Positions 1 to 12,265 of a DNA stretch of 12,914 nucleotides are shown piece after piece. The stretch lies in the NCBI GenBank assembly GCA_043718025.1, contig JAYSWN010000061.1, positions 1 through 12,914 of the forward strand. The letters are read 5' to 3'. The translations under genes and the position numbers were made by a program. The stretch comes from Pseudomonadota bacterium. Lineage in GTDB: Bacteria > Bdellovibrionota > FAC87 > UBA2466. The notes under the pieces were generated by a model. That model did no database searches. It worked only from the letters and a program-made list of their open reading frames with translations, and was not told where the DNA came from. The number at the start of each line of letters is the position of its first letter. Position 1 is the first letter of the stretch.

Positions 1-932
1 TTTAGCTGCTCTCTGAAACCTAAAATTCGTTGCGGATGCCGACCAACAATGGACTCTTCTTTTCCGGGGGGACCTGCGGCCACGATGTGGCGTCCGGGGT
101 AATCCCGGCGCTGCTCCGAGATACCAAACTGTTTGGCTAGTTGGTCAAATTTATCCGGTGCCCCGGTCAAACGGGCATAGATATCGGGATCCATCGCGCG
201 AGAAATTAAAAGGTCGACGCGAAAGGGCTCATTACCCGTGCAGGCGTATGGATTTTCATTGGTTAAAAGCGCAATGGCTTCTGGTTTCAAAAAACGAAGT
301 AGATTAACGCCCACTTGGCCACCGCGCACCAGCGCGGGATTTACGGTGAATATGTCTGCCGACTGGCTGATCATATTAATGAGGTAGTTCAAAGCCGCCA
401 GTTTTACCTGTTCTTCTTTTCCTTGGGCGTACTCAACGGTCTTGATGTCGGGTTCAACTCCTTCTTTAGGCGTGACCGAGCTGGCCAGATCAATCGTAAA
501 TCCGCGCAAAGCACTGGCCCCGCCGTTGGCGATTAAAAACCGCTGAATGGCTTGCGACGCCGCCCCCGCAAACTTATTAAAATTAGTGAGGTAAAACTCT
601 TTAGCCTGTTTGATGGTGTTGGGGAGCGTCGCGCCAACCAGGCGACCAAAACCATCGATGAAGAGATTGCTAACTCTTGGGTTACCAAAGGCATCGCTCG
701 TAAACTCGACCAAGTTGTTGTTAACGTTTTTTATATTAGAAAAAGCGCCGGGAAGATCCTGGATCTGGTTCAAATTGATGAATGAGCCGTTATTGATCCC
801 GCGCTGACTACCCAAGCTGCCCACCTGGCGTCCAAAAACCAAACGCGAAGCGGCCGAAGCCGATTCTGGCAACGCAGCAAGAACTAACGCCAGAAGCATC
901 AGCCCTTTTAATTGTGTAGCTGTGTAACGCAT
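1..932 (-). CDS. Secreted hypothetical protein, 3'-truncated by the window edge (310 codons visible)
   Basis: Hand translation from ATG at 932 is stop-free to the window edge: MRYTATQLKGLMLLALVLAALPESASA|ASRLVFGRQ...RHPQRILGFREQL. It has a Sec-type signal peptide ending ASA. It is absent from the ORF track because the stop codon lies outside the window. Confidence 0.85.
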   Translation of the reverse strand, partial: MRYTATQLKGLMLLALVLAALPESASAASRLVFGRQVGSLGSQRGINNGSFINLNQIQDLPGAFSNIKNVNNNLVEFTSDAFGNPRVSNLFIDGFGRLVGATLPNTIKQAKEFYLTNFNKFAGAASQAIQRFLIANGGASALRGFTIDLASSVTPKEGVEPDIKTVEYAQGKEEQVKLAALNYLINMISQSADIFTVNPALVRGGQVGVNLLRFLKPEAIALLTNENPYACTGNEPFRVDLLISRAMDPDIYARLTGAPDKFDQLAKQFGISEQRRDYPGRHIVAAGPPGKEESIVGRHPQRILGFREQL

Positions 933-942
933 AAATTAATTC

Positions 943-1017
943 AAAAAACCAACTCGCCTTTCAGCGATTTGAGAGGGGGAGCCACGCGTACTTTTACGCG
1001 CGGCTAACGCTCTCAAA
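943..1017 (-). terminator. Double hairpin followed by a U-tract between the two secreted-protein genes (terminator/attenuator or mRNA stabiliser)
   Basis: Minus strand: long stem TTTGAGAG..AGCCGCGCGTA-AAAG-TACGCGTGGCT..CTCTCAAA (968-1017), then TCGCT-GAAA-GGCGA (GNRA loop, about 954-967), then GTTGGTTTTTT. Confidence 0.55.
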
Positions 1018-1022
1018 ACTAA

Positions 1023-1691
1023 TTAAAAACTACGCAAACTGCGAACCTGACTCGCTCCGCCGAAATTTCCAATTCCCTGTCCTAGAGGAGAACTCAAAAC
1101 CACCGCCGAGCTGGCCGGAAGGTTAGCTTGATTAAACTGCTGAAGCTCGAGAGCCGTTCCAGGCAACATCTGGATACTGCTACCGGCAAAAACGCTGCCG
1201 TTTAAGCTAACCAAGTTCTGGCGAATGGCACCGTTGGCATTTACAATCTGCCCATTCACAATCGCATTCTGATTCAACTCCACCACCTGACCCTGGCCAT
1301 TTAAGGCGATGTTGTTAAAGCCAGGAATGACCTGCAATTGACCAACATTTCCCAAAGCAATCTGATTAAAGGGTGATGCTGACGCGGGTCCAAAATCCTG
1401 AAGGTTATTCTGACCGTTGTTGCCGGCATTATTATTTACCGCCGGTGCGGCCAAATTATTTCGAACGACCCTTTGCGCTCTAGCGCGACCTTGTCCGCCG
1501 CCTCTCGCTACGCGTGCTCTACCACCTCTGCGAACCCTGCCTTGCGCCCGGACGGGGCCAGCACGCCTTACACCGCCGCGACCACGTCGCCCGCGCGCAA
1601 AAGCCTCTTCGTCTATTAGAGACAAAAGAAGTAGCAATACGAGACTAAAAACCCCTAACTTCAACCCTACGCGTGATTCGGAAACGGTCAT
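1023..1691 (-). CDS. Secreted low-complexity protein (222 aa): signal peptide, Arg/Gly-rich segment, Asn/Gln/Gly-rich C-terminal region
   Basis: GGAGG lies 7 nt upstream of ATG 1691, which is preferred over TTG 1727. Hydrophobic stretch LGVFSLVLLLLLSLI is followed by an AFA cleavage motif. Confidence 0.85.
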   Translation of the reverse strand: MTVSESRVGLKLGVFSLVLLLLLSLIDEEAFARGRRGRGGVRRAGPVRAQGRVRRGGRARVARGGGQGRARAQRVVRNNLAAPAVNNNAGNNGQNNLQDFGPASASPFNQIALGNVGQLQVIPGFNNIALNGQGQVVELNQNAIVNGQIVNANGAIRQNLVSLNGSVFAGSSIQMLPGTALELQQFNQANLPASSAVVLSSPLGQGIGNFGGASQVRSLRSF

Positions 1692-2130: not shown

Positions 2131-2469
2131 TCAGGGAAAACCAGCCGGCTTCTGGCCAGCGGCATCCGCGGCTTTGAGCTCAGCCAAGGTTTTGTGCCCA
2201 GCCATGGGATCTTTCTTTTGATTGATCACCGGGGTGTCTTTGCAGCCATCTGTATTAAGCTGAATGTAGGCTTGGTATTGGGAAGGCAGATTTTCTTCAG
2301 AATAAATTGCCTCAACCGGACAGGCGGGAACGCAGGCGTCGCAGTTCACGCAGGTGTCGGGGTTGATATAAAGGATGCGGTCGGCTTCATGAAAGGCATC
2401 AACCGGACAAACCGTTACGCAGTCGGTGTACTTACAATCTACGCAGTGTTGGGTGACGATGTAACTCAT
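2131..2469 (-). CDS. fdxA: Ferredoxin, Azotobacter FdI/FdxA-type dicluster ([3Fe-4S][4Fe-4S]), 112 aa
   Basis: MSYIVTQHCVDCKYTDCVTVCPVD...INPDTCVNCDACVPACPVEAIYSEE...IQLN...KKDP contains CxxCxxxxCxxxCP and CxxCxxCxxxCP motifs and the typical C-terminal extension. An AAGGAG RBS precedes ATG 2469. Confidence 0.95.
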   Translation of the reverse strand: MSYIVTQHCVDCKYTDCVTVCPVDAFHEADRILYINPDTCVNCDACVPACPVEAIYSEENLPSQYQAYIQLNTDGCKDTPVINQKKDPMAGHKTLAELKAADAAGQKPAGFP

Positions 2470-2849: not shown

Positions 2850-2962
2850 CAAGTCCCCAGCGGTGGATCACTTTTCGTTAAGTGCGTCCCTTATGAGTTG
2901 TACGTCTTGTTGCGGTTATTGCTCGGGTGACGGTGGTCGCCTTGAGCTTGCAGAGGTTGAAA

Positions 2963-3736
2963 ATGCGCCACGGCTTTTTAAAACTGATTTTGGTTCTGTT
3001 GTCGTTAACGTTAATTGGTTGCGGAGCATCGTCCGAAACCAAAATCGCGGCGCCCACGGATCCGAATGCACCAAAAAAGCAGACGGAACCAACCGATCCT
3101 GGTTCGCCGGTTAAAGACGGCGTGCCCGACCTTACCGGTGCGGCAAACGTGCTTTTGACCAACATCGTTAAAGATGCCGCTTTTAATGAAACCTACCCTG
3201 ACCTCGAAGAGCTATTCGGTTTGGTCTACGGAAACTTGGTAGGAAATCCTAAACTTTTACTTAAATTGTCGGCCGCCACTTCGGCCGGGGTCACTCGCCT
3301 AACCGGAAATCTTCTCTTTGGCTTTGAAGACCAAAAGTATTGGCACGACACGAAACAGAATCACTTTGATAAAACGGGAGTGATTAACAGCTCGTCGTTC
3401 GACATCATTTTTCAAGACGACAACGTCGTCACCCGAGTCATGGCTGACCGTTCGGGCAATGCACTCGCCAACGGAAAACTTTTGTACCGCATTCGCACGA
3501 GCAGCGATGCCTTGGTTACCTATACGTATCCAGGAACTTGGAACACCACGACCCAAGGGGCTCGTCCAACGTATCAAGCCGCCGCTTGCACTCCCTTTGT
3601 GTGGAACTGCGGTAGCAGCGCCTGCGCTTCGCAAAACGATTTAGTCGCCCCATGCCAGTCGTACATCACGAGTGGAAACGGCAGCACTAAGGTAATGGGC
3701 ACTTTCGATTCAACGGTTTCAAATTGGGTGAAATAA
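2963..3736 (+). CDS. Hypothetical lipoprotein (257 aa) with Pro-rich linker and four-Cys C-terminal cluster
   Basis: GAGG lies 6 nt before ATG 2963. Signal peptide II MRHGFLKLILVLLSLTLIG|C (lipobox LIGC). Confidence 0.85.
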   Translation: MRHGFLKLILVLLSLTLIGCGASSETKIAAPTDPNAPKKQTEPTDPGSPVKDGVPDLTGAANVLLTNIVKDAAFNETYPDLEELFGLVYGNLVGNPKLLLKLSAATSAGVTRLTGNLLFGFEDQKYWHDTKQNHFDKTGVINSSSFDIIFQDDNVVTRVMADRSGNALANGKLLYRIRTSSDALVTYTYPGTWNTTTQGARPTYQAAACTPFVWNCGSSACASQNDLVAPCQSYITSGNGSTKVMGTFDSTVSNWVK

Positions 3737-3755
3737 ATTTTTTAGGGGGATGGCA

Positions 3756-4421
3756 ATGAAAGTAAATATGAACAGAAAATTAACGACAGTGGGCTTAGTA
3801 GCATTAGCCTTAACATTCTTAGTCGGATGCGGTGGCAATAAAACGGTTGCTCCCCCTCCCCCGATACCACCATCTAATCCTCAGTTTGGTGGCGGATCGG
3901 CCGGTTGTGGTGGCGGTGGCGCCCAAACGCTCAACAGTTACTTCACGAGCCTGATCAATGTGACGCAAGCTCAACAAACGATTCCTTCATCGTTGACCTT
4001 AACGTTTAACCCGAACGGCGGCACCCAAGTCGTTGGACCCCAGCCTGGTCAAAACGTGCAAGTGTCCGGTTGTTTTAACTGGGCCGATCTTCCGCTGTAT
4101 TTCACCCAACAAGGTGGAAACTTCGGGCAGACCCCCACTAATATCCAAACTGCGATTCAGATGCAGTCACAGGGTGTAGTGACCGTGCAGTCGAATCAGC
4201 AATCGGCTTTCGTCAGCAACATGGTTTTGTTTGGCCAAACGTCGCTCCCCTCGTGGGGCGCCGCTTCCACTCCGACCCAGATCACCATGTTCGTTCAGCA
4301 AGCGTACTTAGGGTTCGGCGGAAGACTGTATGTCACTCAGCCAGCTCAGGTCTACGTCAACGGACAACCCATGATGCCTACCGGCCAACATGCGCCGGCA
4401 TACGTCACTCCACAGCAATAA
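3756..4421 (+). CDS. Hypothetical Gln/Gly/Pro/Thr-rich lipoprotein (about 221 aa)
   Basis: The AGGGGG RBS (3744-3749) fits ATG 3756 best; 3750 and 3768 are alternatives. Lipobox LVGC (Cys codon at 3828), followed by a poly-Pro/Gly linker. Confidence 0.85.
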   Translation: MKVNMNRKLTTVGLVALALTFLVGCGGNKTVAPPPPIPPSNPQFGGGSAGCGGGGAQTLNSYFTSLINVTQAQQTIPSSLTLTFNPNGGTQVVGPQPGQNVQVSGCFNWADLPLYFTQQGGNFGQTPTNIQTAIQMQSQGVVTVQSNQQSAFVSNMVLFGQTSLPSWGAASTPTQITMFVQQAYLGFGGRLYVTQPAQVYVNGQPMMPTGQHAPAYVTPQQ

Positions 4422-4845: not shown

Positions 4846-5385
4846 CTACTTCTTTTTAGTCGAGAACGACTTGCCCTTGTATTTTGCATTAAACTTTTCA
4901 ATCACGCTGTCGGTAAGGTCTGAGCCCGCTTCGGCGTAGAGCACCGCGCCTTCATTTTTCTCAACGATAAGCTGGTAAGATTTTTCTTTGCCGATTCCTT
5001 CGATGATGGAGCGAAGCTCATCGATCAAAGGTTTAGTGAGCTCACGTTCCCGCTTCTGCAAGTCAGCCTGAGACTCCGAGGCACTCTTCTGAAATTCCAT
5101 AAATTTTTTCTGCAGCTCTTGCTGTTTAGCCGCTTTGGCCGAGTCGTTCAAGATGGCGGATTTTTTTTCGAACTGCTCGGCCTCTTTCTGCAATCCCGCC
5201 TGCGCCTTTTCAAGCTCAGTGCGTTTAGCCGCCACATCTTTTTCAAGCTGCGCTTTGGCGGTTTTCCCCGCATCAACCTGCTGCAGTGCTTTCTGAAGAT
5301 CAACGTAAGCCACTTTTAGGGTTGCAGTCTCGGCTGCGGTAGCCAAACGGCTTAACAAAACTACGGCGAGTAAAAACGATTTCAT
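4846..5385 (-). CDS. skp: OmpH/Skp periplasmic outer-membrane-protein chaperone (179 aa)
   Basis: Signal peptide; KVAYVDLQKAL...GK.AK.QLE N-terminal motif; long coiled coil; YQLIVEK...VLYA...DLTDSVI C-terminal motif. Lies directly downstream of bamA, with a GAGG RBS before ATG 5385. Confidence 0.95.
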   Translation of the reverse strand: MKSFLLAVVLLSRLATAAETATLKVAYVDLQKALQQVDAGKTAKAQLEKDVAAKRTELEKAQAGLQKEAEQFEKKSAILNDSAKAAKQQELQKKFMEFQKSASESQADLQKRERELTKPLIDELRSIIEGIGKEKSYQLIVEKNEGAVLYAEAGSDLTDSVIEKFNAKYKGKSFSTKKK

Positions 5386-5397
5386 GCACACCTCAAA

Positions 5398-7737
5398 TTA
5401 GAATGCCGGACCGATTGTAAAATAAAATTTGGACACGTTAGACTTAACAATAGGGTAGCCAAATTCGAAACGCAAGGGACCGATAGGCGTGAACCAGCGG
5501 AAACCCCAGCCAACGTTGGCAAATAACGCGGGGCCGCTTCTAAATGGAAGGTCAAAAGCGTTACCCGCATCAAAGAAAATTACCCCGCGAATGCGGGCCT
5601 CTTTCAGCAAAGGAAACTCAATCTCGGCATTCAGCAGCACTTCATTGTGGCCGCCGACGGTAAATTGCTTGCCGCCCATGTTTCGATCTTGGGCAAGCTG
5701 AGACAAATTGCCCGAGTTATTCGCACTTAGGGTTTGCGCGGGACCAATCGATAAGAAGTCATAACCACGCAAACTGAACAGACCACCCTGAATGAAAAGT
5801 TCATTAATCGGCACCGAGCTACCCTGAATGTTGGCACCGGTGACGTTTAGGCGAAAAATAAAATCCCAAATAATGGGGTGAAAGAACTTAGCCTGAGCCC
5901 GCGTTTTAAAGAACTGGCGCGCCCCACCCAACCCCGCGTACTCCGTACTCAAGCTCAGGTAGCTACCGGTACGCGGGTCGAAACGATCGTCGCGTTTGTC
6001 GTAGACCAAGTTGGCGCTTACTGAACTTGCCACGCCATTTACCGAACTCAACGGAATCAATGAACGGTCAATAATAGTGCCTTCTGGCACGTAAGAGTTC
6101 TCTAATTTGTAAGTTAAAAATAGGTTGGTAAACTCAAGTACCGGATGGCCGAGTTTCACATCGAAGCCGGTCTTAATCTCTTCAAAAGTAGGAATGTCTT
6201 CGATCGCAATTAGGTTACGTCGTAGCTGAAAAAGATCGCCGCCCAAACTCCAATTAGAGTAACCGACGTAGGGTTCCTGAAAGCCCAGAGCAAACTGGTA
6301 ATACTTGCGGCCCGTCAAAATTTCTGCCGATAAACTGGCAACCTGACCGTTGCCCAAGAAGTTGTTTTGCGAAAGCTGAGCATTGATCGTGAAGCCGATA
6401 TTGCCCGAAGCGTAACCAGCACCCACCACCAGCTGACCCGTTGAGCGCTCTTTAACCTTAATTTCAACGTCAACAATGTTAGGCGCTACTTTAGAAGTGG
6501 CCTGGTGAAACTCCACGTTGTCGAAAAAGCCCAAGCGAACCACGTTTTCGCGGCTCTCACGCTTTTTTGTGCCGTTAAATAGCTCGCCCTCATGAATGGT
6601 GAGTTCGCGCCGGACCACTTTGTCTTTAGTGCGGGTGTTGCCGGTAACGATGATCTTGCCGATAAAGACCCGCTCGCCCTTGTCGATATCAAAAGTGACA
6701 TCCACCGTGCGGGTTTCGTCATGAATCATCGGCTGCGGCACCACGTTGGCAAATGCGTAGCCCAAGTCAGAATATTTTTCGGTGTAGCGCAACGTCTCTT
6801 TACGCAGCGTTTCCGTATTAAAGACCTCACCCGGTACCAGGGCTAAATCTTCCACCAGCTCTTGCCGGCGGTAGAGAAGCTCGCCCCCAAAATCTACTTT
6901 GCCCACGTTATATTGCGCGCCTTCATCCACAAAAAAGGTGATGTAGACCCACTTTTTGTCGGGACTGACGGTAACTTCGGGTTTACCGAAACGTGCCCGT
7001 ACGTAGCCTAGAGTGCCGTAGTAATAGCCAAGTGTGGCGATATCGCGTTCGAAAACCGCTTCACGGTAGGAACCGCTACCGGTCAAGAAGGAGAAAAAGC
7101 CACCTTCTTTGGTCTGCATCACTTTTTTCAGATCCTCAATAGGCATGACCTTGGCGCCCACGATGTTGATCTGCTTCACCTGAACTTTGTCGTTTTCTTC
7201 TACAGCGAAGGTAACCTTAACCTCGCCACGAATTTTGTCGTAATCGAGCGTGTAGCGAACGTCGGCTAGGTAGAAACCCTTTTCCTCGTACTTTGCGGTC
7301 AATTTCTCCACGCTCTGACTGAGCTTTTGAATGTCGAGGACTTCGTACTCTTTGACTAAGATAAGATCTTTTAGGTCATCTTTTTCAATGGCATTTAAGC
7401 CGGTGTATTCAATCTTAGAGATGGTCGGTTTTTCAACCACGACAAAAACCAAACGCACGCCGCCGGCAACCGTCTCCTCTTCAGCCTCAATGCCTTCGAA
7501 GTAGCGAAGCTTAGCGATGGCCCGAATGTCTTCGGCCACAACGTCACGAGACAGATCGGTGCCGGGCTTGGTCCGAACGCGCGAGAGAATGGCGTCGGAT
7601 TCAATTTTTTTGTTACCGCGAACCACCACGTCAATGACGGCACGCGACTCGGCAAAAACCCAGGCGGGAAATAGGCCTAACAAAAGCGCAAAAAGGATGC
7701 TGGGCGCAATGAATCGCCCCGAGATGCCAAGCTGAAT
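5398..7737 (-). CDS. bamA: Outer membrane protein assembly factor BamA (Omp85; POTRA repeats plus beta-barrel). Start inferred at ATT 7737; the ORF track start is TTG 7683
   Basis: POTRA motifs (VRGNKKIESDAI, YEEKGFYLADV, YSDLGYAFANV, GNTRTKDKVVRRE, RLGFFDNV), KERSTG barrel start, LRGY loop-6 motif, GFRWFTPIGPLRFEFG and a terminal Phe. Identity is secure; the start codon is inferred. Confidence 0.96.
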   Translation of the reverse strand: MQLGISGRFIAPSILFALLLGLFPAWVFAESRAVIDVVVRGNKKIESDAILSRVRTKPGTDLSRDVVAEDIRAIAKLRYFEGIEAEEETVAGGVRLVFVVVEKPTISKIEYTGLNAIEKDDLKDLILVKEYEVLDIQKLSQSVEKLTAKYEEKGFYLADVRYTLDYDKIRGEVKVTFAVEENDKVQVKQINIVGAKVMPIEDLKKVMQTKEGGFFSFLTGSGSYREAVFERDIATLGYYYGTLGYVRARFGKPEVTVSPDKKWVYITFFVDEGAQYNVGKVDFGGELLYRRQELVEDLALVPGEVFNTETLRKETLRYTEKYSDLGYAFANVVPQPMIHDETRTVDVTFDIDKGERVFIGKIIVTGNTRTKDKVVRRELTIHEGELFNGTKKRESRENVVRLGFFDNVEFHQATSKVAPNIVDVEIKVKERSTGQLVVGAGYASGNIGFTINAQLSQNNFLGNGQVASLSAEILTGRKYYQFALGFQEPYVGYSNWSLGGDLFQLRRNLIAIEDIPTFEEIKTGFDVKLGHPVLEFTNLFLTYKLENSYVPEGTIIDRSLIPLSSVNGVASSVSANLVYDKRDDRFDPRTGSYLSLSTEYAGLGGARQFFKTRAQAKFFHPIIWDFIFRLNVTGANIQGSSVPINELFIQGGLFSLRGYDFLSIGPAQTLSANNSGNLSQLAQDRNMGGKQFTVGGHNEVLLNAEIEFPLLKEARIRGVIFFDAGNAFDLPFRSGPALFANVGWGFRWFTPIGPLRFEFGYPIVKSNVSKFYFTIGPAF

Positions 7738-8956: not shown

Positions 8957-11900
8957 TTAAGGACGGGTAGTGAAGAAGACCGGCGACGTTTGGCAGTTAC
9001 GGCCATCGACCGTTGAAGACTGGCCTTGAGCCGAATAAAAAGTGCTGGGGGCTAAACTGGTAACCAAAACGCTGTGCTGTGTGACATTCGATTGGCCGGT
9101 CGCCGTGCTACCGCGGTTGTTTCCCAAGCCGTAACGCACCACCGAGGTGCTTGCCACCGTAGTACGCCAGTTTACCGACGCCTGGGTCGCGGTGATTTGA
9201 GCCACCGAGAAATTACTGCACGTGAAACTGCGATCCACCGTCCAATTGTAAGTGGCCGGGATAATCGACTGGTTGCCCACCACGTCGACCGCCCAAATCG
9301 CAATCGCATGCGCCCCGTCGGCAGTCACCGCCGCGGTCCAAGGAGAGCTACAAGCCACCGGCACCGCACCGTCTAAACCGCACAAGAAGATGGCCGCCGC
9401 ATCATCGGCGTGAAAATTTGCGGTAAGAAACACGGTGGCGGTTGGCGAGGTCGAGGGCGTGGTTGAGTCAATGGTGACGACGGGCCCTTGGCGATCTACC
9501 GACCAGGCATAACTCACGGCTTGACCCACGCTACCGCCGGCGCTGGCGGCAAAGATCGAAATAGAATGGGCGCCATCGCCCAATAGGTTGAACGACACCG
9601 GCGAAGCGCAGGGCAAGGGCAATTGACCATCCAGTGCACAAGAAACGCTTCCGGCGTTGGTTACGGAAAAACTAAGAACCATGGAATCAAGGTTGGTCAC
9701 ACTTTGCGAAGGCGCGGCGACGCCCAACGTAACCACCGCCGCCGGGGTTTGCACCTTCCAGCCGAGGGTTGAAACCTGACCCGCTTGGCCGCGCAGATTG
9801 CGGGCGAAGATCTTAAAGCTGTGGGCGCCATCCATTAATGCCGTCGCTTCATAGGGGCTCGAGCACGGAGAAAATGCCGCCGCATCTAAAGCGCATTCGA
9901 AATCGGATCCGTTCGAGCTAAACGCGAAACTGGCGGTCTGATTTGCCGACACCTCGCCTTCACTTACGGTCGACGAGAGCACCACGGTTGCGGCCGGCGC
10001 TGCCACCGTCCAAGCGAAAGTGACCGCGGCGCCTTCTGCTCCGGCCACGTTCACCGCTTTCACCGCAAATAGATGAGCCGCGTCGGTTAAGCCGCTGACG
10101 CGATGAGGGCTCTGACAAGGAGCAAACGCCGCATCATCCAAAGCGCAACGAAATTCAACCGCGTGCTGCCCGGTGAACGAAAATTCGTTCTCTTGCGCGG
10201 CGGTCACGGGTCCAGGATTGGTCACCGCAACCAGCGCTACCGTAGCGGTCATCGCGACGGTCCATTCGTAAACCACGCTCGGAGAAATATTTCCCGCCAA
10301 GTCACGGGCGCGCAACTGTAAACGGTGGCGCCCTTCAAACAAGTCATTCACCAGTAGGGGTGAGGAGAACGGCAATTCAGCTCCCCCATCCAGTTGATAA
10401 AACAGCGTGGCCGACGGTTCACTGAGAACATCCAGAGATAAGCTCGTGCTTTCGGTCACGGTATCAGCCGCAATCACAAAATCCAAACTCACGATTGGCG
10501 CCGAGAGGTCAACTTCCCAAACGGCGCTGGCCGTGGTTTGGTTGCCCGCAACGTCTTGCGCCACCACCACCAGTTGATGTTGACCTTCCGAAACCAAAGA
10601 AAAAGAAATTGGGCTCTCGCAAGGGGCGGCGACGCCCGCATCAAGTGAGCAGAGGTAAGTGCTGCTCTCGCTAGCGCTAAACGAAAACGAGGCTACGGTT
10701 TGGTTGGAGGGCGAGGCCACTGGGGCACTACGTTGCACCTGTACCATTGGGCCTTGTGAATCCACCGAAAAGTCGTAACTAAACTGCCCAGCGTTGCCGG
10801 CCAAATCTTGACCGCTCACGACCAGCCGGTGAGTGCCGTCGGCGACGTTGGCAAGGACTAAAGGGGAACCGCATGAAGCTAAGGCCGCGCCATCTAGCTG
10901 GCACGCCAAAGCACTAAGCGGTTCCAACGCGGAAAAGCTCAGCACCAAGTTGCCTCGGTTTAGAATGAGAACGTTCGGGTCAGCCGCGAAAGAAAATTGC
11001 GGCGCAGTAAGATCGATTTTAAAGCGAAATTCGTACGAAGGCGAGGTGCCGCCCAACTCATCCACGGCATAAATAGCAACTTTGTGTTCCCCTTCAGCCA
11101 GATTCTTTAGGGTCCAAGGCGAAGTGCAAACCGAAGCCTCGCCCCCATCGATTGCGCAGCGAAAAGTGGCGGCGCGGTCGCTGGCAAATTCAAAACTTGC
11201 GGTCGTTTGGTTAGACAGCTCGGCGGGCCCGCGGCTAACGCTCAAGACCGGTTGACTTCGCGCTACCAAAAACGCGTAGACCAGTGGAGCTTCAAGCAGG
11301 CTCGGTTTGGTAGCTCGGATGGTGACGATGTGTCCCCCCTCGGCCAGACCCTTTAAGACTAAAGGCGACTTGCACGCGAACAATTTATCGTTGTCGAGCT
11401 GGCAAGAAAAAGTGCGGGCCTTTTTGCTGCCCGAGGTATCGACAAACGCGAGCGATAAAAAATCGCTCCCGAAAATAAAACTGCCGGGCTCCGCTTTTTG
11501 CAGAACCAGTTTTGCAGCGTGGCCTAGCAGGTAGGCGTCGTAACGGAGCACCGGGCCCACCACTTCAGAAGTCTTGGCGCGAATTAGCACGGTGAGCCAG
11601 CCCGCCTTCAAATTGGTGACCAGTAGCGGTGACCGGCAAGGGGTAAAAATTTTGCTGTTTACGGCGCACTCAAAAGTATCGGCCACCGGAGCGGCATGAA
11701 AACGCAATGCCACCGTACTTCCGGGGTTCACCCAGTCGCTTGGTGCGACTTGATCGAGAACTACCATGGGCGAAACGGGAACCGCTTTTACGATGCCGTC
11801 GCGACCCCAAAGCAATTCTCCGGTAAGCAGACGAACCGGAGCGCGCCACCAAATCTCAAAGCGGCCGTTGCGCTTGAAACAGTCGCGTACGTATTTATGA

Positions 11901-12265
11901 AAAGATTGTTTTTCGGATTCAAAAAGGAAGTTGAGATTGATCTCCAACACCGCCCCGGCGGCACTCTCAGAAACCCAAGTCGCGTTTCGACGAAGCGCAC
12001 CATTTGAAAAACGGCTCTTGCCATTCCAGGCCAGGTGCAGCGTGGTGAGATCAAACTTCTTCTCGAAGCCAAGAACAAGTTTAGCCGTGTCCTTAGCGGA
12101 AAAATCCGCCGGCGGAAAATTGGGGAATACCAAGCGGTATTGGCTGCGATGAAACTTCGCGTGATGGCGAAACCAGTTCCGGTGCGCCGACGCCGAAGCG
12201 CTGACACACAGGCCGATAAGCAGCCACCAGCGAATCAATTTATGACCAAAAAATGCCACCACCAA
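8957..12265 (-). CDS. Large secreted protein (about 1100 aa) with ten tandem bacterial Ig-like repeats and a C-terminal FN3-like domain; putative adhesin/surface protein
   Basis: Signal peptide ending ASASA; about 85-aa repeats with core C-x-LD-x6-C-x-SP-x5-L-x2-G-x-H-x5-A-x-D-x2-GN; final domain VAQITATQASVNWRT...VRYG...HSVLVTSLAPSTFY. Start is TTG 12265 or GTG 12262/12259. Confidence 0.9.
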   Translation of the reverse strand: MVVAFFGHKLIRWWLLIGLCVSASASAHRNWFRHHAKFHRSQYRLVFPNFPPADFSAKDTAKLVLGFEKKFDLTTLHLAWNGKSRFSNGALRRNATWVSESAAGAVLEINLNFLFESEKQSFHKYVRDCFKRNGRFEIWWRAPVRLLTGELLWGRDGIVKAVPVSPMVVLDQVAPSDWVNPGSTVALRFHAAPVADTFECAVNSKIFTPCRSPLLVTNLKAGWLTVLIRAKTSEVVGPVLRYDAYLLGHAAKLVLQKAEPGSFIFGSDFLSLAFVDTSGSKKARTFSCQLDNDKLFACKSPLVLKGLAEGGHIVTIRATKPSLLEAPLVYAFLVARSQPVLSVSRGPAELSNQTTASFEFASDRAATFRCAIDGGEASVCTSPWTLKNLAEGEHKVAIYAVDELGGTSPSYEFRFKIDLTAPQFSFAADPNVLILNRGNLVLSFSALEPLSALACQLDGAALASCGSPLVLANVADGTHRLVVSGQDLAGNAGQFSYDFSVDSQGPMVQVQRSAPVASPSNQTVASFSFSASESSTYLCSLDAGVAAPCESPISFSLVSEGQHQLVVVAQDVAGNQTTASAVWEVDLSAPIVSLDFVIAADTVTESTSLSLDVLSEPSATLFYQLDGGAELPFSSPLLVNDLFEGRHRLQLRARDLAGNISPSVVYEWTVAMTATVALVAVTNPGPVTAAQENEFSFTGQHAVEFRCALDDAAFAPCQSPHRVSGLTDAAHLFAVKAVNVAGAEGAAVTFAWTVAAPAATVVLSSTVSEGEVSANQTASFAFSSNGSDFECALDAAAFSPCSSPYEATALMDGAHSFKIFARNLRGQAGQVSTLGWKVQTPAAVVTLGVAAPSQSVTNLDSMVLSFSVTNAGSVSCALDGQLPLPCASPVSFNLLGDGAHSISIFAASAGGSVGQAVSYAWSVDRQGPVVTIDSTTPSTSPTATVFLTANFHADDAAAIFLCGLDGAVPVACSSPWTAAVTADGAHAIAIWAVDVVGNQSIIPATYNWTVDRSFTCSNFSVAQITATQASVNWRTTVASTSVVRYGLGNNRGSTATGQSNVTQHSVLVTSLAPSTFYSAQGQSSTVDGRNCQTSPVFFTTRP
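9230..11767 (-). repeat. Ten diverged Ig-like protein repeats within the large gene
   Basis: Cores: CAVNSKIFTPCRSP, CQLDNDKLFACKSP, CAIDGGEASVCTSP, CQLDGAALASCGSP, CSLDAGVAAPCESP, YQLDGGAELPFSSP, CALDDAAFAPCQSP, CALDAAAFSPCSSP, CALDGQLPLPCASP, CGLDGAVPVACSSP. Boundaries are approximate. Confidence 0.9.

Follow-up and report, generated by a model that had tools for sequence, protein, structure and literature searches.

A lineage-restricted N-terminal domain shared by a small basic protein, a predicted haem c protein and a metallopeptidase-like protein: a candidate docking tag

A domain of about 65 residues lies near the N-termini of two proteins encoded by neighbouring genes at the end of a contig from an uncultured bacterial lineage, and it recurs at the head of a third type of predicted exported protein in related genomes. 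We consider the two neighbouring segments very probably homologous. The domain architecture suggests a portable docking or address tag that would bring its exported carriers to a common site in the cell envelope, a reading that we hold tentatively and with slightly less than even confidence. The window, meaning the whole stretch of 12,914 nucleotides that was analysed (contig C192), belongs to a genome of 4.14 Mb that is 92% complete. The two genes, hereafter the small and the large gene, lie head to tail on its minus strand with a gap of 90 bp between them, and the relevant features are as follows.

1023..1691, minus strand: small gene, 222 aa (defined by the open reading frame and its orthologues), encoding a predicted signal peptide, Arg-rich tail, Asn/Gln/Gly linker, module and short tail
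1596..1691, minus strand: predicted Sec signal peptide of the small protein, ending Ala-x-Ala (from sequence; cleavage inferred)
1458..1595, minus strand: Arg/Gly-rich basic tail, predicted disordered (from net charge and low pLDDT)
1344..1373, minus strand: hairpin-like segment ahead of the module (FNQIAL; FSSLALD in genus g11)
1122..1343, minus strand: shared module, small-protein copy, residues 117-190 (predicted beta strands, then one helix)
1230..1274, minus strand: insertion hairpin NQNAIVNGQIVNANG within the small-protein module, which the small proteins in genera g3 and g11 lack
3..932, minus strand: large gene, first 310 aa, running off the contig (the other 272 aa, with CMVCH, are at the end of G000:C180)
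852..932, minus strand: predicted Sec signal peptide of the large protein (from sequence; cleavage inferred)
582..770, minus strand: shared module, large-protein copy, residues 55-117 (from profiles and an orthologue model)
519..581, minus strand: second helix, common to the large protein and the module-bearing peptidases and missing from the small protein
2131..2469, minus strand: 4Fe-4S dicluster ferredoxin gene upstream of the small gene, a frequent neighbour of the locus in relatives

Because the large gene is split between C192 and C180 (C-terminal part at L065:8513-9328, minus strand), these contigs adjoin in the genome, and a database protein of 573 aa (P0005) contains the exact sequence of each piece, separated by 2 residues. 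In a Pfam scan of 11 proteins of the window, neither the small nor the large protein had a match at E 0.1; Rfam gave no match within 900-2950, and promoter and terminator counts were no different from chance. The gene ahead of the large gene is usually that of the 4Fe-4S ferredoxin or one that we take to be penicillin-acylase-like, with the small gene in between where present (window 2131-2469; L069-L084, L155-L162). The rest of the window includes two predicted lipoproteins without a Pfam match (2927-4421, plus strand), the first apparently kept near the ferredoxin gene in relatives, BamA and OmpH/Skp genes (4846-7683, minus strand), and a protein of 1102 aa that combines bacterial Ig-like repeats with a fibronectin III-like domain at its C-terminus (8957-12265, minus strand). 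Downstream of the large gene, C180 carries genes that we presume to encode ETF, acyl-CoA dehydrogenase and a type IV pilus ATPase-like protein.

The initial annotation had reported a ~40-aa Asn/Gln motif in two otherwise unrelated secreted proteins and had correctly located the two peptides on the minus strand. Compared as a pair, the window's small and large proteins gave a marginal BLASTP match (14/38 identical, E 0.014), and in a Smith-Waterman shuffle test the best score was reached by 34-162 of 5000 shuffles, with the top-scoring alignment in a different register; pairwise alignment alone was thus inadequate as proof of the motif. Used as a single query, the large protein found matches in 21 of 41 relatives, compared with 3 of 41 for the small protein. 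We accept homology because the profiles of the two orthologue families align: the match had a probability of 96 and an E value of 2.5e-9 over 57 columns (6 versus 14 rows) and, with profiles cut to the module, a probability of 81 and an E value of 1.3e-5 over 62 columns (11 versus 29 rows), the family-profile alignments spanning 56-62 columns at E 2.5e-9 to 1e-5 overall. When profile columns were shuffled (26 small versus 29 large rows), none of 200 shuffles reached the observed score of 29.7 (shuffled mean 9.2, maximum 16.05). Removal of genus g1 lowered the profile match to a probability of 8.7 (E 0.004), and a test on core columns gave 17.99 against 17.98 for the best of 150 shuffles. A profile built solely from large proteins ranked the small ORF third among the 25,391 six-frame ORFs of the genome (E 0.74), and across 38 genomes the small ORF was its best non-training match (E 0.118). 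Besides these two genes, no further module copy was found among the 25,391 ORFs (next best E 0.89).

The homologous segment extends over ~65 residues (window 770-582 and 1343-1122), more than was first described, and it is not an Asn/Gln repeat: conservation is strongest mainly at Gly, Phe, Leu/Ile, Glu and Thr, joined by two Asn positions in small proteins and a single one in large proteins. Asn plus Gln account for 31% and 21% of the small and large modules. The first half of the original motif pattern is in register, but its tail, A-x2-N-x-x-[VI]-x-N, is misregistered and aligns the NQNAIVNGQIVNANG insertion as if it were conserved; in the profile register, RVSNLFIDGFGRLVG lies opposite IRQNLVSLNGSVFAG. 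Nor are the two proteins otherwise unrelated, since the whole N-terminal layout is common to both and the small protein approximates the N-terminal cassette of the large one (signal peptide, Arg-rich tail, Asn/Gln/Gly linker, module) standing alone. As for the partial internal copies that had been noticed in the small protein, FNQIAL/FNNIAL is plausible as an extra hairpin copy (6 of 2000 shuffles as good, for a pair chosen after the fact), whereas IQMLPG was rejected as a repeat (1399 of 2000).

AlphaFold models built from separate alignments, one for the window's small protein (11 rows) and one for the G001 orthologue of the large protein (37 rows), both predict a short strand, three to four further strands and a helix. 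Compared as secondary-structure strings in this five-strand-plus-helix order, the elements of the small and large proteins pair one-for-one along the profile alignment (QV/KE, IAL/LRTF, VVEL/NLVEF, RQNLVS/SQLFI, SVFA/LV), and the helix PGTALELQQFN of the small protein corresponds to the helix over TVKQVKEFY of the large one. Only the module is confidently modelled in the small protein (block pLDDT 76-89; whole-chain mean 60.3); the large-protein orthologue reached a mean pLDDT of 85.6 and a pTM of 0.82, with the module block at 79-86. The module is predicted to be a single compact alpha/beta domain rather than a repeat solenoid. Gly/Asn-rich beta-hairpins could have come to resemble each other by convergence, as the marginal pairwise score and the weak profile match without genus g1 might suggest, and the module profile does catch six unrelated long proteins through short repeated matches. 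Convergence nevertheless seems very unlikely to us, given that no column shuffle reached the observed score, that separate models arrive at an identical order of strands and helix, and that the signal peptide, basic tail, linker and gene adjacency are common as well.

Searches of sequence and structure catalogues returned no relative of the module. The fold of the small model had a best E of 0.92 in Foldseek and a best Z of 3.0 in VIA-align; with the large model, Foldseek found nothing at E 0.001 in PDB or BFVD, and a VIA-align search with the whole large model barely probed its module. Sequence searches of PDB gave best E values of 0.14 and 1.5, Pfam reached E 0.039 at best across 25 small proteins, Pfam and NCBIfam yielded only single-member weak matches across 14 large proteins, PHROGs reached E 0.012 at best across eight proteins, and the small module had no match in the ESM Atlas. 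Nothing on the module was found in the literature searched, where an unnamed domain is not searchable by word. The module is thus a real, lineage-restricted domain that matches nothing in Pfam, PDB or the other catalogues searched.

A survey of 401 genomes from the phylum placed the module in a single order, where 31 of 38 genomes have it. No match elsewhere was convincing: of two, one was interrupted by a stop (E 0.004) and the other was partial (E 0.008), and both were attributed to chance. A search of 1.84 billion representatives returned 52 matches, comprising 31 of the large type, 10 of the small type, two peptidases, three short pieces and the six long unrelated proteins; the last, three of which have a TrbI domain, yielded no domain on rescoring and were set aside as spurious. 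The carriers fall into three architectures: a CxxCH protein, an HExxH protein and a stand-alone protein.

A tree of 59 modules over 72 columns, poorly resolved and unrooted, grouped 26 small modules (92/98) with one long-branch large row inside; 79% of bootstrap trees united them in a single clade. The two copies from the window were not sisters. One old tandem duplication fits this pattern, and recent copying does not; the direction of duplication is taken from the wider spread of the large gene, the tree having no root. In 11 of the 38 genomes, an orthologue of the small gene precedes the large gene on the same strand at a distance of 35-406 bp (these distances depend on the chosen start codons), and a twelfth genome has the two genes at facing contig ends, the 12 cases coming from 5 of 14 genera. 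The small gene is, as its substitution pattern indicates, under purifying selection (pN 0.17-0.24, pS 0.64-0.86 for the 5 closest of 55 orthologue pairs, with synonymous sites near saturation). Its position directly upstream and this selection make it likely that the small gene began as an old tandem duplication of part of the large gene, namely its 5' end. Common descent might also be the whole story, with a duplicated 5' end and a swap of gene ends having spread a domain whose copies are now functionally unrelated. That the small modules share only 14-27% identity with the large copy in the window, sit on a long branch of their own and lack the second helix, and that the large gene often has no small gene upstream, would be expected on such a history. 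Against this, all 12 small genes adjoin a large gene or sit at the facing contig end, and all three module types largely retain the Gly, Glu and Leu positions and the Thr that starts the helix, so we consider descent without a retained common role rather unlikely. A database protein of 122 aa (P0068) has a signal, a basic tail and a module in which features of the large and small types are mixed; it may be either a fragment or an intermediate that stands alone.

The third architecture was found in G003, G006 and G016, where the module and the second helix head an ORF of 517-552 codons with an HExxH motif and only weak metallopeptidase matches in Pfam. The peptidase and large modules matched with a probability of 96.8-97.8, and a fourth module-bearing peptidase was found blind in G010 (E 2e-6). 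In the reverse direction, a profile of the four peptidase rows, containing no cytochrome rows, recovered the N-termini of large proteins in 10 of the 38 genomes (E 5e-10 to 6e-6). Direct comparison of small and peptidase modules was not significant (probabilities 2.8 and 12.9). In the source genome, the syntenic peptidase orthologue (C82) lacks the module and has a different N-terminus.

The large protein (~580 aa) is predicted to be exported, with a signal peptide recognised by pattern, and carries one CxxCH haem motif (C396, C399, H400) that is invariant in 29/29 rows, along with one extra invariant Cys and a second found in 26/26 rows. Outside CxxCH, no His or Met is invariant (M236 in 21/29 rows), so the distal haem site may be open. 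We infer that the protein binds one c-type haem in a fold weakly like that of cytochrome c'-beta/P460, and an ORF on C185 with a WWD motif, presumably marking a CcsA-type haem attachment protein, suggests a haem maturation system. VIA-align matched model residues of about 231-432 to 8brk_A (Z 6.1, rmsd 4.8, 115 aligned), 6hiu_B (Z 5.7, rmsd 4.7, 113 aligned) and 7s5o_A (Z 5.3, rmsd 4.5, 118 aligned), the c'-beta/P460 family making up 5 of the 50 matches listed, with CxxCH near the end of the matched region. As the tool's bar is 8, this suggestive likeness of the modelled core may reflect a common arrangement only. The C-terminal subdomain of the model (residues 481-526) resembles MerR/Xis-type helix-turn-helix folds (Z up to 5.5), which would be odd for a predicted exported protein. 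The first three ESM Atlas matches for the large protein (P0003) were unnamed clusters of 436-618 aa, mostly phage (feature score 0.95-0.96, of low recognition value), with no PHROG or BFVD match backing them.

The full large-protein profile matched 33 of the 38 genomes of the order and the module profile 30, and the core (profile positions of about 150-525, ending in CxxCH) was found alone in 10 of the 363 other genomes of the phylum. In nine of the 14 core-bearing relatives examined, the core is preceded by another CxxCH domain (seven with a cytochrome c-type Pfam match and four with PSCyt1), which places the module at the position of the relatives' haem domain. More broadly, a CxxCH-ending core without a Pfam model is widespread (L144-L154, L066-L068), preceded by PSCyt1 or another cytochrome c domain and followed by FGE-sulfatase, ankyrin, PDZ or beta-helix domains.

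A module that is gained and lost on unrelated secreted proteins and also kept free most simply binds something that all its carriers must reach, and this is the ground for preferring the docking tag. The cassette of signal peptide, Arg-rich tail, Asn/Gln/Gly linker and module heads the large protein, makes up almost the whole small protein and heads the HExxH protein of four relatives; all three carriers would be exported. A single early event in the family would have copied the large gene's 5' end in tandem to give the small gene, which selection then kept; the module would bind a common envelope partner or polymer, and its free copy, the small protein, would act as a co-expressed companion or competitor at the shared site. 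The original suggestion that a small module could target or dock its carriers accords with its recurrence in three architectures and its gain or loss on the peptidase. Several observations count against the docking tag: three architectures among 52 matches are few for a general address tag, small-to-large homology is much weaker without genus g1, small and peptidase modules do not match significantly, and in G010 the module of the large protein is barely recognisable, even though the small gene is present.

The module might instead act within its own chain, as a lid or pro-domain controlling access to the haem site of the large protein and to the active site of the peptidase, with the small protein as a free copy that regulates both in trans. 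Secreted metallopeptidases often carry N-terminal pro-domains, the module occupies the place of the relatives' haem domain, the whole-chain pTM suggests a defined packing of module on core, and a distal haem site lacking an invariant His or Met (M236 included) may be open to such gating. We nonetheless find this improbable, because one lid would have to fit two unrelated folds, a long Pro/Gly-rich linker separates the module from the catalytic part in the peptidases, and the peptidase orthologue of the source genome manages without it.

Outside the module, the small protein is Asn/Gln/Gly-rich and predicted disordered. The net charge of its basic tail, +12 over the first 30 mature residues, is the highest of 488 ORFs in the genome with a crude signal pattern, and early mature charge is +8 to +14 in 12/12 small orthologues and -1 to +10 in 29 large ones. 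Since Sec export in E. coli is hindered when the start of the mature chain is strongly basic, it is uncertain whether the small protein is exported; in its signal peptide, A30 and A32 are invariant in 11/11 rows. Passages of PMC9360617 deal with signal-peptide features and the positive-inside rule. An RRxxFGR-like motif, picked post hoc, follows the signal peptide in 16/25 small and 14/29 large proteins (shuffled maxima 8 and 7) and is missing from the window's small protein; because it lies downstream of the hydrophobic stretch, we do not read it as a Tat signal. Similar Arg-rich mature starts occur in other proteins of the lineage (L030:1246-1740, L031:433-1704). More speculatively, and with only a slim chance of being right as a whole, this cassette of Arg-rich tail and new beta/alpha domain, specific to one order of uncultured Bdellovibrionota, may act as an address that brings together a metallopeptidase, a beta-sheet haem protein of a new type and a free copy serving as scaffold. 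They would form a single complex in the envelope or at the surface, perhaps reached by an export route that tolerates or reads the basic tail.

A domain held by no searched library thus appears to move between unrelated secreted proteins, and it is usually through such mobility that sorting and docking tags first come to notice. The analysis further brings to light a family of predicted haem c proteins that has no Pfam model and whose core may extend the cytochrome c'-beta/P460 fold. Should the module be an address tag, it would offer a handle on envelope organisation in an uncultured lineage through a small, testable part; should it be only a relic of duplication, it would be a minor addition to the domain catalogue.

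Among known systems, proteins with PSCyt1 (PF07635, planctomycete cytochrome c) have a core that is homologous to that of the large protein and likewise ends in CxxCH. They differ in front, where the large protein has a haem-free module and therefore one CxxCH rather than two; PF07635 matched none of 14 module-bearing orthologues, versus 4 of 14 core-only relatives, and ESM Atlas matches at 0.79-0.85 were PSCyt1 clusters, which we treat as a lead only. The locus of the large gene is unlike the PSCyt1/PSCyt2/PSD1 plus DUF1501 loci in the relevant passages of PMC3542564, and neither this core nor the module appears in the passages of PMC3542564 and PMC11495043 that mention PSCyt1. The beta-sheet fold with CxxCH of cytochromes c'-beta/P460 may resemble that of the large protein's core (Z 6.1 at most, rmsd about 4.7), although this core is far larger; the Pfam P460 family had no match in the 14 large proteins searched, and the PF16694 search was run without a positive control. 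Passages of PMC11928373 describe a five-coordinate haem as a feature of this group and a haem-Lys cross-link in P460; in the large protein, K271 is kept in 19/29 rows.

Like the curli CsgA/CsgB and Fap pairs, the window holds adjacent genes for predicted secreted proteins, one of them small and Asn/Gln/Gly-rich, and the initial annotation had pictured a nucleator/subunit pair without recognising a curli CsgA repeat. The latter judgement stands: curlin repeats (PF07012) were found in neither protein, in none of 25 small-family members and nowhere in the genome (control positive in E. coli), the CsgG pore had 0 matches in this 92%-complete genome (controls positive in 4/14), and the predicted fold, strands and one helix with the rest at low confidence, is not a beta-solenoid, so curli membership was rejected. 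The Fap amyloid has FapB/FapC repeats within a fapA-F operon; by Pfam, the two proteins had no match and the 11 window proteins scanned included no Fap-type neighbours. The small low-complexity protein could still be a polymer subunit, with the large protein as nucleator or cargo, in keeping with the tight gene linkage, its composition and predicted disorder, and edge strands that could stack. We judge co-polymerisation quite improbable, since each chain has one module that is predicted to be globular with a helix, a haem c motif is present in the large protein, and in many genomes no small gene stands upstream of the large one. For the docking tag that we prefer, the closest parallels in behaviour are dockerin, SLH and type IX C-terminal domains, which are portable docking or sorting domains of secreted proteins. 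The module differs from them in having no sequence or fold match to them, in being known from three architectures and one order only, and in having a receptor that is hypothetical; like them, it is a small terminal domain that shuffling has added to and removed from unrelated secreted proteins.
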